Positions 30,317-36,700 of a stretch of DNA of 64,000 nucleotides are shown here, in pieces (position 1 is the stretch's first letter; each line of letters opens with the position of its first letter). The notes under the pieces were generated by a model, which worked only from the letters and a program-made list of their open reading frames with translations, made no database searches and was not told where the DNA came from. The stretch covers positions 37,622 to 101,621 of the forward strand of contig JAAZIU010000023.1 of the NCBI GenBank assembly GCA_012800735.1, written 5' to 3'. Made by a program: the position numbers and the translations under genes. The stretch comes from Clostridiales bacterium (GTDB taxonomy: Bacteria; Bacillota; Clostridia; Oscillospirales; CAG-272).

Positions 30317-31414
30317 ATGATATATGATTCGGTATGGCGGAGGATGGCCGACTGTCCGCTTCCGCTCGTGATGTACGGAACCGGAGACGGCGCGGACAGG
30401 ATATGCAATATGCTGAATCGTTTCGGCCGCGAACCTGACGCCTTTTTCGCATCGGAAGAACGAGTCAGACCCGGACAAATATTCCGCGCAAAGCCGGTAA
30501 AGAGTTACAGTGATATCTGCCTTCAATACCCGGAATTCGCCGTCGTCCTCGGTTTCGGCTCAGATTTGCCGGATGTTATTTGGCGGGTAAGCTGCCTTTT
30601 TCAGCGGCATAAACTTTTCGTCCCGGAGATAGCCCCGTCGCCGGATGCGGAAGACCCGGAAAATGATATATTCACATCACAGACAGCGCTCAGATATCGC
30701 GAGGAAATCTCCGCTTGCCGCAACTTATGGGCTGACCTGCAGTCCCGCCGGTTGTTTGACGCAATCCTGCGCTTCAGAATGAGCGGGGATATCGCCGATA
30801 TTGCGGGAACTGCTTCGCAGGATATGTATCTTCCGCTTTATCACTCGAAAAAAAGCTATAAAACCGCCGCCGACTTAGGCGCGAATCGCGGTCAGACGTC
30901 GCTTGAACTGCTCATGCGGTTCCCGATGATTTCCCGTGTAATCGCGATGGAGCCGGATATGACGAATTTCCGCAAACTTGGCGCCGCCGTAAGGAAGGAC
31001 AGCCGGATAGAGCCGTATAACATAGCCGCCTGGGATGAGAACGCGCAGATAACCGTATTCGGCGACGGCTCCCGCGGCAGCTCCGCCGAAAGGGAGGATA
31101 AAAGCCAAAAGCGCCGTTTCCGCCCGACAAATATCCGCGCCGCAACCTTCGACAGCATAATTGACGGTGACTGCGACCTTCTGCATATCGATGTCGAAGG
31201 CTCGGAACAGCGGGCGCTGAAAGGAGCAAGGGAAACTATAAGCCGCTCCCGGCCGGATATAATGTTCGCCGTGTATCATCGGATGACCGATCTTTTCCTG
31301 CTCCCGTTGCTTATCCGGCGTCTGATGCCGGAAAAAAGCTTCTATCTCCGCCGCCCCGAGGCATATCCGGCGTGGGACCTGACCCTCACGGCGATAAGCA
31401 GAACGCAATGTTAA
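30317..31414 (+). CDS. FkbM family methyltransferase
   Basis: N-terminal YGTGDGA Rossmann-like segment; DLGANRG, AMEPD and HIDVEGSE motifs; AVYHR. Confidence 0.85.
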   Translation: MIYDSVWRRMADCPLPLVMYGTGDGADRICNMLNRFGREPDAFFASEERVRPGQIFRAKPVKSYSDICLQYPEFAVVLGFGSDLPDVIWRVSCLFQRHKLFVPEIAPSPDAEDPENDIFTSQTALRYREEISACRNLWADLQSRRLFDAILRFRMSGDIADIAGTASQDMYLPLYHSKKSYKTAADLGANRGQTSLELLMRFPMISRVIAMEPDMTNFRKLGAAVRKDSRIEPYNIAAWDENAQITVFGDGSRGSSAEREDKSQKRRFRPTNIRAATFDSIIDGDCDLLHIDVEGSEQRALKGARETISRSRPDIMFAVYHRMTDLFLLPLLIRRLMPEKSFYLRRPEAYPAWDLTLTAISRTQC

Positions 31415-31426
31415 AACTGCACAAAA
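31397..31426 (+). repeat. 30-bp direct repeat, left copy (includes the last codons of the FkbM gene)
   Basis: agcagaacgcaatgttaaaactgcacaaaa, identical to 35259..35288. Confidence 0.95.
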
Positions 31427-31622
31427 ACAACACTTACTAATTATTACATTCGCTGAAAATAAAAAATGTCCTAAAAATTATGGTCTTTTGAATGAGTATC
31501 GTATATAATATAATTACGATAAAGTTTAAGGGTAAGATTAATTATAAATACTGCTAAGAAATTGCAGATGCCTCTTCTGTGGGAATAATCACGGATTAAC
31601 TTTATTATACTGGTGATGAAAA

Positions 31623-33413
31623 ATGAAGAATAATATCAAGAAAACATTTAAATATATAATGCTGTCCGTGAAATTAATTGTTGCGGCAGGCAAGGCTCAT
31701 GTAATATTATGGGTAATCGCAATCATAATACCTCCTATAATTGAAATCTTGAAGAAAATTATTAACGCAAATATGATTGACGGCATATATAACCTTTTAC
31801 ACGGCGGAAGTGTTTTTATTCCTCTGATATCGTTATGCGTATTAGTATTGGTTTCCGCCGGATATAATATATTTTATAAGATACAAAGCCGGGTGTTCTG
31901 GATTCTCGCTCAATCCGCCGATGAACAAATGATGTTATATGTAATGGAAAAATCATCGGGAATAAAACAAATATCGTTTGATTCCGCCTCAAGATTCGAT
32001 AAAATAAAAGATTCCATCGGTTCTGATCTGTCATTGTGGGATTTGAATTGCAATTTAATGGATTTCATTACGACATGCGTCACAATCGTGGGAAGCATTG
32101 TAATTGTGAAAAATTATAATATAAAGCTTGTCGCCGTTGCTTTTATTTTTTCGATTCCATTTTATTTCATCAGTAACATTCTCAGAAAATACGATGCGGA
32201 ATCGAATGTGCTTTCACGCCGAAAAACACATATAATGGGTTATTATTTGGATATGCTCACAGGGGTGAAAGCGGCGAAAGAAATTCGTCTTTTTGGAATA
32301 CAGGAATATATGCTTTCCATTTGGCATGGCAAGCATCGTAAATTTCAGAAAGAGGATGAGCGGATTGCATTTCGCCAGATGTGTTTTTCACTTGTTTTAA
32401 TCATTGTAGAGGTACTCTATTCTTTTTTGATTTATTTTGTTTGCGCGAAAAGTGTGATAGACAAAACAATCACCGTCGGTGAGTTTTATTTATTTACTGC
32501 AAATTTCTTTTTGATGTTTGAAGCGTTTCAGCAAATCTCTGAAACAATCAGGAGTACCTTGAATATAAGCCATGAATACGATGCTTTTGAAAAATTCACG
32601 AAAGAAACCGAAGAGGGAGAACGAACGGGAACTGCATTTGTTCCGACGGAAATGATATCGATACGTTTTGAAAACGTATCCTTCCATTATGAGGATGAGC
32701 CGGTTCTCAGGGACATTTCTTTCGAGTGGAAAACCGGAGAAAATATTGCTTTGATTGGCAGGAATGGATGCGGAAAATCAACGTTAATAAAACTGATCTG
32801 CGGGCTTTATGAATGCGATAAGGGGACGATTTATATCAACGATGTCGACGTAAACGAATACGCACAAAGCGATCTATATAAGCTGTTTGGCGTTGTGTAT
32901 CAGGATTTTTGTCATTATCAACTGCCGCTGAGAACGATATTGGCCTCTCAGCGTCTCGATGCTCTTTACGACGATGACGCCTTGTGGGAGGTCTTTGACC
33001 GCGTTGATTGTTCTGAAGTAAAAAAGCAATTGACGGATGGTTTGGATACGCCGCTGGGACGTGAATATGATGACGGCGTGGAATTATCCGGCGGTCAATG
33101 GCAAAAGCTGGCGATTGCCCGGAATTACTATGGAAATCGGCCGTTCTTGATTTTTGATGAGCCTTCTGCTGCATTAGATCCGAAAGCGGAGTTTAAAATT
33201 ATTGAAGACTTGCTTTCCCACACTGAAAAAATGGAACTGAAAAGCGTTCTTGTCATCTCCCATCGGCTGAGTGTGGGAAAACTCGTCGACAGAATCCTTT
33301 ATTTGGAAGATGGACGTATTGTAGAACAGGGGACACATGATGAATTGATGAGTCGAAACGGCAGTTACGCGAAAATGTACAATACACAGGCTTCGCTTTA
33401 TGAAAGGGGATAA
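31623..33413 (+). CDS. ABC exporter, fused TM and ATP-binding domains (1)
   Basis: TM helices; Walker A GRNGCGKS, signature LSGGQWQK, Walker B FDEP, SHR; AT-rich codons. Confidence 0.92.
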   Translation: MKNNIKKTFKYIMLSVKLIVAAGKAHVILWVIAIIIPPIIEILKKIINANMIDGIYNLLHGGSVFIPLISLCVLVLVSAGYNIFYKIQSRVFWILAQSADEQMMLYVMEKSSGIKQISFDSASRFDKIKDSIGSDLSLWDLNCNLMDFITTCVTIVGSIVIVKNYNIKLVAVAFIFSIPFYFISNILRKYDAESNVLSRRKTHIMGYYLDMLTGVKAAKEIRLFGIQEYMLSIWHGKHRKFQKEDERIAFRQMCFSLVLIIVEVLYSFLIYFVCAKSVIDKTITVGEFYLFTANFFLMFEAFQQISETIRSTLNISHEYDAFEKFTKETEEGERTGTAFVPTEMISIRFENVSFHYEDEPVLRDISFEWKTGENIALIGRNGCGKSTLIKLICGLYECDKGTIYINDVDVNEYAQSDLYKLFGVVYQDFCHYQLPLRTILASQRLDALYDDDALWEVFDRVDCSEVKKQLTDGLDTPLGREYDDGVELSGGQWQKLAIARNYYGNRPFLIFDEPSAALDPKAEFKIIEDLLSHTEKMELKSVLVISHRLSVGKLVDRILYLEDGRIVEQGTHDELMSRNGSYAKMYNTQASLYERG

Positions 33414-33421
33414 AGATAAGG

Positions 33422-35206
33422 ATGAAAAATATTCAATTATCCGTTCGCAATATTGTTATCCTATTCAAAATATTAGGGAAAGAGCAATTATTCGGATTGA
33501 TACTGCGCACTTTATCAACGGTCGTAAATATTGTTTTACCGCTATTGTTGATTTATTTTCAAAAAAGATTGATACAGCTGATTCAAATAGAAACAACCAG
33601 TGAAAAAATACTGATATTTTCTGTTGTTTCAATTTCATGCGTCCTGTTGGCAAAAAAGATTTTAGAGATTATTTTTGGCTTTATTAATTCGGTATTGAAT
33701 AATAAATTATCGTGTAAGCTGGAATATACATTACATAAGAAATGCGTGAATGCACAGCTTCGTGCCTATGATAATCATGAAATATATGACAAAATGACCA
33801 TAGCGAACAGAATCGGAACTTCGACGATAACAAATTATATCTTTGCGTTTTTTGACATTGCCGGCGAGATCATGCAGTTTCTATCTTCTGCAATCATACT
33901 ATGTACCTTTTCTGTATGGCTGTTGGCGGCGGCTTTAATAGGCGCAATTCCGGGAATATTTGTACGAATATTTGGGAATAAGTATGAAGAGTTCGACAAA
34001 AAACGTACATCGATTGTCAGGCGAATGAATTATTTTAAAAACATCGCAACCAAAGGCGAATATACAAAAGAGACAAAGTTGTTCGGGATTATTCCTTTTG
34101 TCTGCGGCGAACACAAACGATATTATGATGCATGGGCAAAAAGTGAATTAGCCTATAGAGATGAGGACAATCGCAGAAGAATAATATGGCAGTCAGCGAC
34201 GTCTTTGTTGATCATGGTATTGCCGTCTCTGTACTTAATATGGCGTGCGTCGCTGAATGAAATTGATGTTGCGGATTTTTCATACTATTTAAGCTTATTG
34301 ACATTATGTCATGGTAATCTGACTGCAATTATCAATCATTTGTTTGACAATGAGCTTGCGGACAGCCGGATCAAGGACTATTTTGAATTTTTGAATATGC
34401 CCATAGACAGCCGGGAAGGAGAGGATATTCCTGCGGAGTGGTTGAAGGAAATTCCCAGAATAGAGTTTCAGAATGTATCGTTTCGTTACAGCGGTTCCGA
34501 GACAAATGCGCTCGATAATGTAAACTTTGTAATCGAAGCGCATGAAAAAGTCGCGATAGTGGGACTTAACGGCGCGGGAAAAACAACATTAATCAAGCTG
34601 CTATGTGGATTATATGAAGTGTCAGAGGGTAAAATTCTGATTGGCGGTCGGAATATCATGGAATTTTCACAAGTCTCAGTGTATCGATTATTCTCTGTTG
34701 TATTTCAGGATTTTCTGAATTATGAAATGCCTTTTATTGAGTCTCTTTCATTGGGCGGTGAAGAAAAAGTGACAGCGGAGGCGGTCTATGAGGCATTTGA
34801 TCATATGGATGGCAGAAATATTGTGGAAAAAAGATTTTTGGGTGATCTCAATCGATCTGTGGGAAAAATAATAGATAAAGACGGTGTGGAACTGTCGGGT
34901 GGGGAACATCAAAAAGTTGCATTAGCTCGTTCTATACTACAGAACAGACCCATGATCATTCTGGACGAGCCGACATCTAACTTGGATGCATATGCAGAAA
35001 CTGCGATTTTGAAAAATTTCTTATCACATATTTATCAAAAGTCTGTGGTTATTGTATCCCATAGATTATCAGCAGTACATTTTGTTGACAAAATTATCGT
35101 TATGGAAAATGCTCATATCATTGAGCAGGGAACGCATTCGGAATTAATGAAAAGAAACGGAAAATATGCGTCTATGTACGAATTGCAAGCGAGTCAATAC
35201 CAATAA
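33422..35206 (+). CDS. ABC exporter, fused TM and ATP-binding domains (2)
   Basis: Walker A GLNGAGKT, signature LSGGEHQK, ILDEP, SHR; 8 bp after the first ABC gene. Confidence 0.92.
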   Translation: MKNIQLSVRNIVILFKILGKEQLFGLILRTLSTVVNIVLPLLLIYFQKRLIQLIQIETTSEKILIFSVVSISCVLLAKKILEIIFGFINSVLNNKLSCKLEYTLHKKCVNAQLRAYDNHEIYDKMTIANRIGTSTITNYIFAFFDIAGEIMQFLSSAIILCTFSVWLLAAALIGAIPGIFVRIFGNKYEEFDKKRTSIVRRMNYFKNIATKGEYTKETKLFGIIPFVCGEHKRYYDAWAKSELAYRDEDNRRRIIWQSATSLLIMVLPSLYLIWRASLNEIDVADFSYYLSLLTLCHGNLTAIINHLFDNELADSRIKDYFEFLNMPIDSREGEDIPAEWLKEIPRIEFQNVSFRYSGSETNALDNVNFVIEAHEKVAIVGLNGAGKTTLIKLLCGLYEVSEGKILIGGRNIMEFSQVSVYRLFSVVFQDFLNYEMPFIESLSLGGEEKVTAEAVYEAFDHMDGRNIVEKRFLGDLNRSVGKIIDKDGVELSGGEHQKVALARSILQNRPMIILDEPTSNLDAYAETAILKNFLSHIYQKSVVIVSHRLSAVHFVDKIIVMENAHIIEQGTHSELMKRNGKYASMYELQASQYQ

Positions 35207-35258
35207 TAATTCTGTTAAGTGGCGATTATGTTGCACTAATTAGATATTTTTTTGTCAG

Positions 35259-35288
35259 AGCAGAACGCAATGTTAAAACTGCACAAAA
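35259..35288 (+). repeat. 30-bp direct repeat, right copy
   Basis: Identical to 31397..31426. Colinear degenerate similarity continues for about 100 bp (tcgctgaaaat; gtatcgtNtataatataattNcgat). Confidence 0.95.
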
Positions 35289-35343
35289 TTCACATCTCTA
35301 AAATGTTAAAATCGCTGAAAATTCAAAAAAATCGAAAAACCTA

Positions 35344-35372
35344 TTGACAAGCGATTTTGTATCGTTTATAAT
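35344..35372 (+). promoter_or_regulatory. Perfect sigma-A promoter driving the small ORF
   Basis: TTGACA-17bp-TATAAT. Confidence 0.85.
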
Positions 35373-35454
35373 ATAATTGCGATGAGGAAAAGAACGGAAT
35401 GTAACAAAGACCGTTGACTTCATCAAAAATAAAAAACTAAGGAGGTGAGAGGCA

Positions 35455-35550
35455 GTGTTTACGAGACGGACAGGTTGTCCGGGTCACAGGGCGTTTGACA
35501 GGATTGAGCCGTTCAAGCTTGAAACATATCCAAATAAACGTTCTGGCTAA
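35455..35550 (+). CDS. Small 31-aa protein MFTRRTGCPGHRAFDRIEPFKLETYPNKRSG (absent from the ORF track)
   Basis: GTG start 9 nt after GGAGG within the RBS AAGGAGGTGA; consensus promoter upstream; terminator immediately after the TAA. Confidence 0.6.
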   Translation: MFTRRTGCPGHRAFDRIEPFKLETYPNKRSG

Positions 35551-35598
35551 AGCGCGCATCCTATGCGGTGAATTTTTCGTAGGATGTGCGCTTTTTTT
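35551..35598 (+). terminator. Terminator of the small-ORF transcript
   Basis: 15-bp stem agcgcgcatcctatg/cgtaggatgtgcgct (two G-U pairs) followed by ttttttt. Confidence 0.85.
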
Positions 35599-35655
35599 AT
35601 TTTGTTTGCAATACGGTCGTCTGTTGCAGCAAGCAGCGAGCGCTTTATATAAAAT

Positions 35656-35684
35656 AAAAAACCCGCTCATAAGGCGGGTTTTTT
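35656..35684. terminator. Bidirectional terminator (end of the transketolase operon)
   Basis: aaaaaacccgc-tcataag-gcgggtttttt. Confidence 0.8.
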
Positions 35685-35737
35685 AAAGACTATTTCGTTT
35701 ATCAGAAAGCTTTTAAGAAAGAGAATTGCAGTTTGTT

Positions 35738-36700
35738 TTACTTATTCTTCATCGCAATCGCGGCCCTTACATTCGCGGCGATGTCCGCCGGAGTCAGGCC
35801 GTATTCTTCAAGCAGGGCGGCGGGCTTGCCCGACTTGCCGAACTTGTCCCTTATACCGACACGCTTGACCGGACAGGGATGGTTTTCAGAAAGCGTCTCG
35901 CAGACGGCGGCGCCGAGTCCGCCGATAATCTGGTGCTCTTCGGCGGTAACGATCGCGCCGGTCTTGACGGCGTATTTTACCACGAGCTCTTCATCAAGCG
36001 GTTTTATCGTGTGTATGTTTATAACGGCGGCGTCAATGCCTTCGGCTTTAAGCAGCTCACGCGCCTGGAGTGCCGAGTCTACCATCATGCCGGTTGCGAA
36101 TATCGCGGCGTCGGAGCCGTCGGCAAAGACGATTCCTTTGCCAAGTTCAAATTTATAATTGTCCGGGTCGTTGATGACCGGAAACGCGAGACGGCCGAGT
36201 CTGATGTAAACGGGACCGACATAGTTTAGCGCTGCCTCGACGGCGGCGGCGGTCTCGACGACGTCGGACGGCGAAATAATCGTCATTCCCGGTATGCTGC
36301 GCATCGTTGCGATGTCTTCGTTGCACTGGTGGGTTGCTCCGTCTTCTCCTACCGAGATTCCGGCGTGGGTAGCGGCGATTTTTACATTGAGATGAGGATA
36401 TCCTATCCCGTTGCGAATCTGCTCATATGCGCGTCCGGCGGCGAAAATCGCAAAGGTGGAAGCGAAGGGAACGAGCAGTCCGGTCGCGGCGATTCCGGCG
36501 GCGACCAGCATCATGTTGCCTTCCTGGATTCCGCAGTCGAAATGACGGTCGGGGAACTTCTTTTGGAAGGTTCCGGTTTTGGTGGCAGAGGCGAGGTCGG
36601 CGTCAAGCACGACGAAATTTTCGTATTTCTCGCCCAGAGCGGCGAGCGCGTTGCCGTAGGCGTCGCGGGTTGCTATTTTCTTTGTATCAGCCATTGTCAT
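35738..36700 (-). CDS. Transketolase, C-terminal subunit
   Basis: DADLA, GIQEGN, HAGISVGEDGATHQ, IHTIKPLD and EEH motifs. Confidence 0.93.
   Translation of the reverse strand: MTMADTKKIATRDAYGNALAALGEKYENFVVLDADLASATKTGTFQKKFPDRHFDCGIQEGNMMLVAAGIAATGLLVPFASTFAIFAAGRAYEQIRNGIGYPHLNVKIAATHAGISVGEDGATHQCNEDIATMRSIPGMTIISPSDVVETAAAVEAALNYVGPVYIRLGRLAFPVINDPDNYKFELGKGIVFADGSDAAIFATGMMVDSALQARELLKAEGIDAAVINIHTIKPLDEELVVKYAVKTGAIVTAEEHQIIGGLGAAVCETLSENHPCPVKRVGIRDKFGKSGKPAALLEEYGLTPADIAANVRAAIAMKNK

Follow-up and report, generated by a model that had tools for sequence, protein, structure and literature searches.

The locus described here raises the question of whether two ATP-binding cassette (ABC) exporter genes enclosed by a short exact direct repeat constitute a mobile cassette, or whether the repeat records an event of another kind. 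It lies in a 64,000-nucleotide (nt) stretch from a Clostridiales bacterium (GenBank assembly GCA_012800735.1, contig JAAZIU010000023.1, positions 37,622 to 101,621 of the forward strand), hereafter the window; the genome of the window is labelled G000, and relative genomes and contigs are labelled G002, G003 and L0xx. The exporter genes, ABC1 (31623-33413, + strand) and ABC2 (33422-35206, + strand), are flanked by the two copies of a 30-bp direct repeat, identical at every base (31397-31426 and 35259-35288). The account that we favour, with a probability of about 0.72, is that the window retains part of an array of three repeated units, in which a deletion scar fuses the second unit to the third and a recently shared ABC pair persists within a decaying foreign locus.

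In a sequence of 64 kb, chance alone would yield ~1.8e-9 exact 30-mer repeats. The left copy spans the last five codons and the stop codon of a gene (30317-31414, + strand) encoding an FkbM-family methyltransferase (Pfam PF05050, TIGR01444), and ~95 colinear bases follow the 30-mer on its 3' side, with 71-77% identity between the two copies. The two matches of this repeat family, D1 (81 nt, 77%, spacing 3862) and D2 (65 nt, 71%, spacing 3863), differ in spacing by one, so that a single 1-nt indel separates the copies. The right copy contains TTGACA-17-TATAAT at 35344-35372, a 12/12 sigma-70 match, and the -35 position of the left copy reads TGGTCT. The repeat, the FkbM end within it, the colinear diverged stretch and the two -35 sequences, which an earlier note on this DNA had described, were confirmed, and the note's statement that no integrase is present was upheld by a gene and family scan of the neighbours, which revealed no integrase, transposase or recombinase within ~10 kb on either side of the locus (the genes found there being sulfate-activation, aspartokinase, amidohydrolase, FkbM, transketolase, ABC/FtsX and AraC genes). 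The genome of the window contains only these two copies of the unit. Both junctions are present in six independent assemblies (NCBI, ENA, JGI and Logan; 99.6-99.98% identity) obtained from biogas and anaerobic-digester samples, with differing samples and assemblers, and the arrangement is therefore real.

Comparison with relatives revealed the origin of the second 30-mer. Among 60 related genomes, a close FkbM homologue (88-90% protein identity) was found in only three lineages of the same genus, none of which carries a close ABC1; the key relatives, L068 and L074, the latter a 1.5-Mb contig of the metagenome-assembled genome GCA_050953205.1, were obtained by a look-up of near-identical proteins. 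In this sister lineage the order is FkbM, a first unit (U1), ABC1, ABC2, a second unit (U2), a broken radical S-adenosylmethionine (radical-SAM)/SPASM gene, a third unit (U3) and an open reading frame (ORF) of 31 amino acids (aa), with three units counted in L074 and, independently, in L068. The G002 lineage (L067, L069) harbors FkbM, a U1-type unit, a ~1 kb internally deleted radical-SAM/SPASM remnant, a right-type unit and the small ORF, and is devoid of the ABC pair; the sole relative returned by a scan of JGI metagenomes was identical to it. In G003 a unit is followed by the leader of the ABC operon, six ABC1 codons and then a multicopy sequence whose copies in that genome are 100% identical; since the far side of the contig break is likewise multicopy, a probable insertion sequence (IS) has replaced the rest of the slot.

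Alignment of nine units from the window and its relatives (alignment A2) gave an identity of 0.86-0.95 between U1 and U2, a range that also covers U1 of the window against U1 and U2 of relatives, and of 0.62-0.67 between either of them and U3. U1 and U2 start with AGCAGAACGCAATGTTAA, i.e. with the FkbM end, and U3 starts with a diverged version only, GTGTTAAA.GTGCACAAA. Up to the stretch TGCACAAAA, the right unit of the window is U2-type at 22 of 22 informative sites, including 22 nt of the ABC2 3' untranslated region (compared with U2 of L068); after this stretch it is U3-type at ~45 informative sites, the exceptions being three sites at which the window agrees with U3 of G002 and a separate variant is found in U3 of L068 and G003. 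The right unit of the window is thus a clean U2/U3 chimera, whose type switches inside the 9-nt TGCACAAAA (35280-35288, + strand) common to U2 and U3, as expected if U2 and U3 recombined there with loss of all intervening DNA, and the second 30-mer is therefore the surviving 5' end of U2. The U2 5' part (35237-35288, + strand), which includes this 30-mer, is identical to U2 of L068 and L074, and the U3 3' part (35289-35383, + strand) carries the perfect sigma-70 promoter. The suggestion of the earlier note that the repeated units recombine is borne out by this chimera.

The radical-SAM segment is absent from the whole G000 genome. Its remnant in G002 is 88-92% identical to that of L068, a core-like divergence, and lies next to a U3 that has kept its own 5' part; G003 retains the last ~39 nt of the segment before U3. 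Core-gene identities (0.910 for G000-L074, 0.884 for G000-G002 and 0.891 for G002-L074) place G002 outermost. As the segment is old in G002, leaves a trace in G003 and is absent in G000, with G002 outermost, loss in G000 is the parsimonious solution. From this we infer the direction of the event, a deletion in the window's genome versus an insertion in the sister lineage, and consider it likely that G000 lost the radical-SAM segment by deletion between U2 and U3. In the proposed course of events, three promoter units of ~125-135 nt would head three transcription units of a clade-specific locus situated between the FkbM and transketolase genes; in G000 the U2 3' part, the radical-SAM gene and the U3 5' part would then have been deleted, leaving the U2/U3 chimera. 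A short identity between the ~65%-identical direct repeats probably allowed recombination or slippage to create this join, for which no dedicated recombinase would be needed.

The four lineages show different decay stages, namely a pseudogene in the sister lineage, an internal deletion in G002, IS replacement in G003 and repeat-mediated deletion in G000. Intact homologues of the L074 radical-SAM gene are 630-647 aa long, share 38-54% identity with it and carry the motif CQLRCxYC. The L074 copy reads CQLSGKYF at this position, has lost two more of the conserved cysteines and is broken up into three ORFs (36, 156 and 439 aa), and the L068 copy has the same degenerate motif. The 36-aa ORF following U2 was considered as a precursor peptide, a proposal that was withdrawn because it matches the N-terminus (MKFTNTFPSTLYDYILYLY) of the intact 630-aa homologue P0125 and is hence a pseudogene fragment. 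An intact radical-SAM/SPASM cluster for a ribosomally synthesized and post-translationally modified peptide (RiPP) was accordingly not found, the maturase being absent in G000 and broken in L074, with no precursor identified. The clusters of the intact homologues consist of a 92-94-aa ORF, the radical-SAM gene, a ~101-aa ORF and an ABC exporter 33% identical to ABC1. The L074 gene (L074:14038-15902) and its homologues P0125-P0131 belong to an uncharacterised ~635-aa radical-SAM/SPASM family with a ~250-aa N-terminal extension, whose members (clusters L104-L106) score under every NCBIfam equivalog cut-off.

The multicopy element of G003 (L004:2826-2950, L036:1-105) is a probable IS; its copies, found at numerous contig ends, are 100% identical, and its right end is hairpin-like, GACTTTTGCTTTT...AAAAGCAAAAGTC. 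Copies related to it also occur in G000 (C29:3567-3680, C12:10532-10648, C21:19625-19678 and C44:24630-24675).

The ABC pair has a GC content of 0.380 versus a genome mean of 0.484 (z = -2.3, within the lowest 1.1% of equal-length windows), and its GC at third codon positions (GC3) is 0.38-0.41 versus 0.56-0.63 in neighbouring genes, so that the cargo is compositionally foreign and more AT-rich than its flanks, as the earlier note had supposed. The FkbM gene, with a GC of 0.549, a GC3 of 0.628 and a synonymous divergence (dS) of 0.34 from L074, is the native, GC-normal left flank. ABC1 is 98% identical to its L074 counterpart. Between G000 and L074, dS is 0.064 for ABC1 and 0.054 for ABC2, versus 0.25-0.57 for seven flanking genes on both sides, and the ratio of nonsynonymous to synonymous divergence (dN/dS) is 0.13 and 0.16, respectively. 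Mismatch density relative to the sister lineage is 4-20 per 100 nt across FkbM and U1 and ~2 per 100 nt thereafter, with the drop falling somewhere from ~31517 to ~31592, where U1 ends or slightly beyond, and divergence staying low to ~35190. Because the dS of the ABC genes lies far under that of the flanks, the pair was shared recently: well after their split, the two lineages either exchanged the exporter segment or each received it from a common source. A dN/dS of ~0.15 further indicates that the pair is still kept under purifying selection. Both features may be taken as the last steps of the proposed history, in which the pair would have passed recently between lineages, or from one source to both, and then been retained by selection. 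As separate observations, the genome is richest in AT at C17:21500-30000, C21:16500-21000 and C29:500-2500 (GC 0.34-0.37), stretches that could be other acquired islands, and contig C29 holds a fragment of an ABC1 paralogue together with a copy of the IS-like element.

ABC1 (596 aa) and ABC2 (594 aa) both have the organization of ABCB-type half-transporters, with a transmembrane domain followed by a nucleotide-binding domain (PF00005 at 1.9e-27 and 2.7e-27, respectively; PF00664 weak for ABC1), and the second is the probable heterodimer partner of the first. Their end-to-end MsbA-like alignments score 223-225 bits, which is under the equivalog cut-off, and a C39 peptidase domain is absent, since the TIGR01193 match begins at profile position 144-147 (166-174 bits versus a cut-off of 524). 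No ABC1 match above 36% was found among GTDB species representatives and none above 32% on PLSDB plasmids. At 63-67%, the pair's closest distinct homologues come from CcpM-like radical-SAM peptide clusters (L075, L078-L081), where they likewise form paired exporters. The ABC1 homologues lie there after the radical-SAM gene, a member of the TIGR04066 family and Cys-rich ORFs of 43-44 aa, and the clusters adjoin PcfJ/PcfK or TraG-like conjugation genes. By association only, this supports a role of the ABC pair in peptide export or self-protection and a mobile low-GC source. Most likely the two proteins form a heterodimeric exporter that is either a remnant of a peptide (RiPP-type) system or was taken over from one, and whose present role may be export or self-protection. 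In the homologous clusters themselves (L075:6667-13583 and L078-L081), the TIGR04066-family gene is accompanied by an 87-aa ORF, a 43-44-aa Cys-rich ORF (e.g. MEFLKRSFAESILFTSSCNNACLGNCNGESDHVAKQKGSRKKSS) and the paired ABC exporter, and a Toprim gene is also found nearby, together with the PcfJ/PcfK and TraG-like genes.

U1 (31397-31529, + strand), whose start is formed by the last 18 nt of the FkbM gene, consists of the 30-mer, the conserved ATTCGCTGAAA block, the weak -35 element TGGTCT, TATAAT and a run ending in TTTAA. The FkbM C-terminus, AISRT, is native, AIKRT and similar ends being present in other genera. This native end is copied at the start of U2 and diverged at the start of U3, and the units were therefore duplicated in place together with the downstream promoter; the reading of the repeat in the earlier note as a duplicated promoter-like unit carrying the FkbM end is thus sustained by the copied native 3' end and by the AI(S/K)RT C-terminus seen in another genus. 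The units would have arisen through local duplication while foreign AT-rich DNA came in. Duplication of a whole unit flanking foreign DNA would be expected from Campbell-type integration of a circle and from tandem duplication followed by replacement alike. A diagnostic 22-nt block is common to U2 and the G003 allele of U1, so that units have been converted or exchanged among positions or lineages.

Four blocks are kept in 9 of 9 units, namely GTTAAA.TGC.CAAA, TCGCTGAAA, the -35 region and GTA..GT.TATAATATA, which suggests that the units may be regulated in common. Among the conserved sequences upstream of the -35 region are ATTCGCTGAAA and two TCG-containing boxes 19-20 nt apart. No LytTR, histidine kinase or pheromone-type regulator was found within ~10 kb of the locus. 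U1 is presumed to be the promoter of the ABC operon, from which ABC1 is separated by a leader (31530-31622, + strand) whose predicted fold is not significant (z = -0.85). The leader of the 31-aa gene likewise lacks significant structure, and the idea of an attenuator in these two leaders was dropped on that account. A Rfam scan of 31000-36000 gave only sub-threshold matches, located on terminators.

Several points weigh against parts of this account. The direction of the event rests on parsimony with an unrooted lineage split that is almost three-way; the opposite course, less likely but exactly the same reaction run backwards, would be insertion of the radical-SAM segment into a chimeric unit like that of G000. 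G002, at one stage regarded as a clean U1 x U2 deletion, was downgraded because its junction lies ~105 nt into the radical-SAM leader, i.e. ~105 nt past the expected end of U2, and so does not provide a clean second case of unit-by-unit deletion. The -35 element of U1 is poor, which leaves its promoter putative. No precursor peptide was found, all relatives seen have either a dead maturase gene or none, and any substrate named for the exporter is a guess. Coverage of L068 is ~1x, although the array is confirmed by L074.

The same evidence bears on other explanations of the repeat. The simplest, put forward in the earlier note, is that a single ABC cassette was inserted by duplication or recombination at the promoter of the small ORF, the 30-bp identity being a target duplication or a crossover core. 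The duplicated unit with its host FkbM 3' end, the AT-rich cargo and the start of the low-divergence tract at or just after the edge of U1 are all as such an insertion would leave them, and the part of that proposal concerning a foreign cargo and a recently moved ABC pair stands. Its explanation of the repeat does not, since the second 30-mer is the 5' end of U2 fused to U3 and so marks a junction left by deletion or recombination: in the sister lineage U2 is full length, contains the 30-mer and is followed by further cargo before U3, the right unit of the window is a U2/U3 chimera and not a diverged whole copy, and the 5' part of U3 is diverged in G002 and G003, so that the exact 30-mer was not in the original site by the small ORF. 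We regard a single insertion as improbable. An integrative element with the 30-mer as its attachment (att) core and a recombinase encoded elsewhere is more improbable still, and hardly to be expected here. Exact identity followed by diverged homology does resemble attL/attR at the 3' end of a gene; against this, no integrase occurs within ~10 kb, the cargo has no mobility genes, the unit is found only twice in the genome, in the sister lineage the same 30-mer opens a full-length unit, and the junctions differ between lineages, lying near the 5' end of the unit in G000 and past its 3' end in G002. To an assembly artefact we assign practically no weight. Its support is the Logan k=31 contig L059 (window 31405-35319), both edges of which lie within the repeat or slightly beyond it, a sign that assemblers do branch there, but this is outweighed by the six independent assemblies that span both junctions, and the artefact named in the earlier note as a possible refutation is excluded by them. 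L059 was rejected as a candidate circle, its edges reflecting no more than branching of the k=31 assembler at the exact 30-mer.

A somewhat stronger competitor than a single insertion, though still an unlikely one, is a recombinase-free, integron-like array, in which a promoter module seeded from the FkbM 3' end and the downstream promoter would both drive each cassette that arrives and supply the homology for its gain by Campbell-type integration, its loss by loop-out as a circle and its passage between species. The three units and two cargos in one slot, the duplication of host sequence in U1 and U2 as Campbell insertion would produce it, an ABC segment 4-10 times younger than its flanks with a left boundary at or near a unit edge, and the 22-nt block of the G003 U1 allele in U2, a sign of exchange between units, all fit this scheme. 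It is opposed by the fact that only two cargo types are known, one of them a decaying pseudogene everywhere, that no empty site or alternative functional cassette was found, and that the closest ABC clusters elsewhere do not contain the unit; moreover, ordinary allelic recombination plus deletions explains the same data. The earlier note had also suggested that the repeats could mark a variable cassette slot, with an empty site in relatives as a check. The content does vary among relatives, but the variants are decay stages of one locus and not alternative cassettes, and no empty allele was found: wherever a contig with an identical FkbM extends far enough, the ABC pair is present (19 such contigs are on record, and 8 places were read). 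Were the cassette array real, it would amount to an analogue of an integron in function, driven by homology. We thus retain the three-unit array with a U2/U3 deletion scar as the preferred explanation.

To the right of the chimera, the U3 promoter precedes the 31-aa ORF (MFTRRTGCPGHRAFDRIEPFKLETYPNKRSG; 35455-35550, + strand), which has a GTG start and an AAGGAGG ribosome-binding site and is followed by an intrinsic terminator (35549-35598, + strand; fold -27 kcal/mol, z = -4.8). All codon differences in this ORF are synonymous (4/4 versus G003 and 5/5 versus L074). It has no called gene on record and no protein family match, a six-frame search of 400 genomes of the order returned no homologue, and the ORF is restricted to this clade. 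The gene is monocistronic and remains intact even where the adjacent radical-SAM gene is dead or deleted. Between it and the transketolase gene, the window contains only a bidirectional terminator (35600-35740); at the corresponding place (L069:9318-12155 for G002, L074:16407-17090) G002 and L074 carry a gene for a CBM6-like surface protein, and G002 additionally has an ABC/FtsX pair.

The locus offers a clean, datable case of a small foreign gene cluster being dismantled within a genome, as one clade preserves the parental three-repeat state together with a repeat-mediated, an IS-mediated and an internal deletion. If the exporter protects against a peptide of neighbouring cells, it would represent an "immunity-only" remnant persisting in the dense communities of biogas reactors. 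For annotation, the lesson is that an exact short repeat around AT-rich cargo, taken alone, should not be read as evidence of a mobile cassette.

Among known systems, integron arrays share with this locus the serial cargos in one slot bounded by a ~130-nt repeat, as well as the hybrid element left by cassette loss. Integron cassettes are usually promoterless, whereas the units described here carry promoter sequences; in addition, there is no IntI, no attC-like inverted repeat (no inverted-repeat pair with both arms in one unit was reported) and no fixed crossover. Lacking a recombinase, an attC-like structure and a set crossover point, the locus is neither an integron nor a site-specific integrative element. 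The CcpM-type (TIGR04068) clusters on conjugative elements provide the paired exporters closest to the ABC pair; they differ in that the window is devoid of CcpM, the TIGR04066-family gene and the Cys-rich precursor, and in that the sister radical-SAM gene, with 24% identity to a CcpM-like protein over 189 aa, belongs to the different ~635-aa family. The repeated unit, for its part, is absent from the CcpM-like clusters that hold the closest ABC homologues.

The bacteriocin locus pln of Lactobacillus plantarum is a multi-operon locus with repeated co-regulated promoters and variable content. The pneumococcal blp locus likewise combines repeated co-regulated promoters with variable content, and its "cheaters" keep only part of the system (PMC3171984). 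As in both loci, several short operons (for a transporter, for maturation or peptide functions, and for a small peptide gene) would here each stand behind a copied promoter module, with content that varies between strains. The differences are that no two-component system, pheromone or LytTR regulator lies nearby, that the transporters have no C39 peptidase and that the radical-SAM/SPASM maturase is dead. Loci of the blp/pln type have paired direct-repeat boxes upstream of each -35; the conserved blocks upstream of the -35 in the present units are candidate regulatory sites.

In mechanism, the parallel is deletion between direct repeats in genomic islands, by RecA-dependent or short-homology loop-out, in which two diverged repeats are converted into one chimeric repeat with the switch in a short identity, here TGCACAAAA, and no dedicated recombinase takes part. 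The locus behaves as an ordinary direct-repeat-mediated deletion in a horizontally acquired islet, distinguished from the common case in that its repeats are operon-heading promoter modules containing a copied 3' end of the upstream gene, and in that a sister lineage has kept the parental state with all three repeats.

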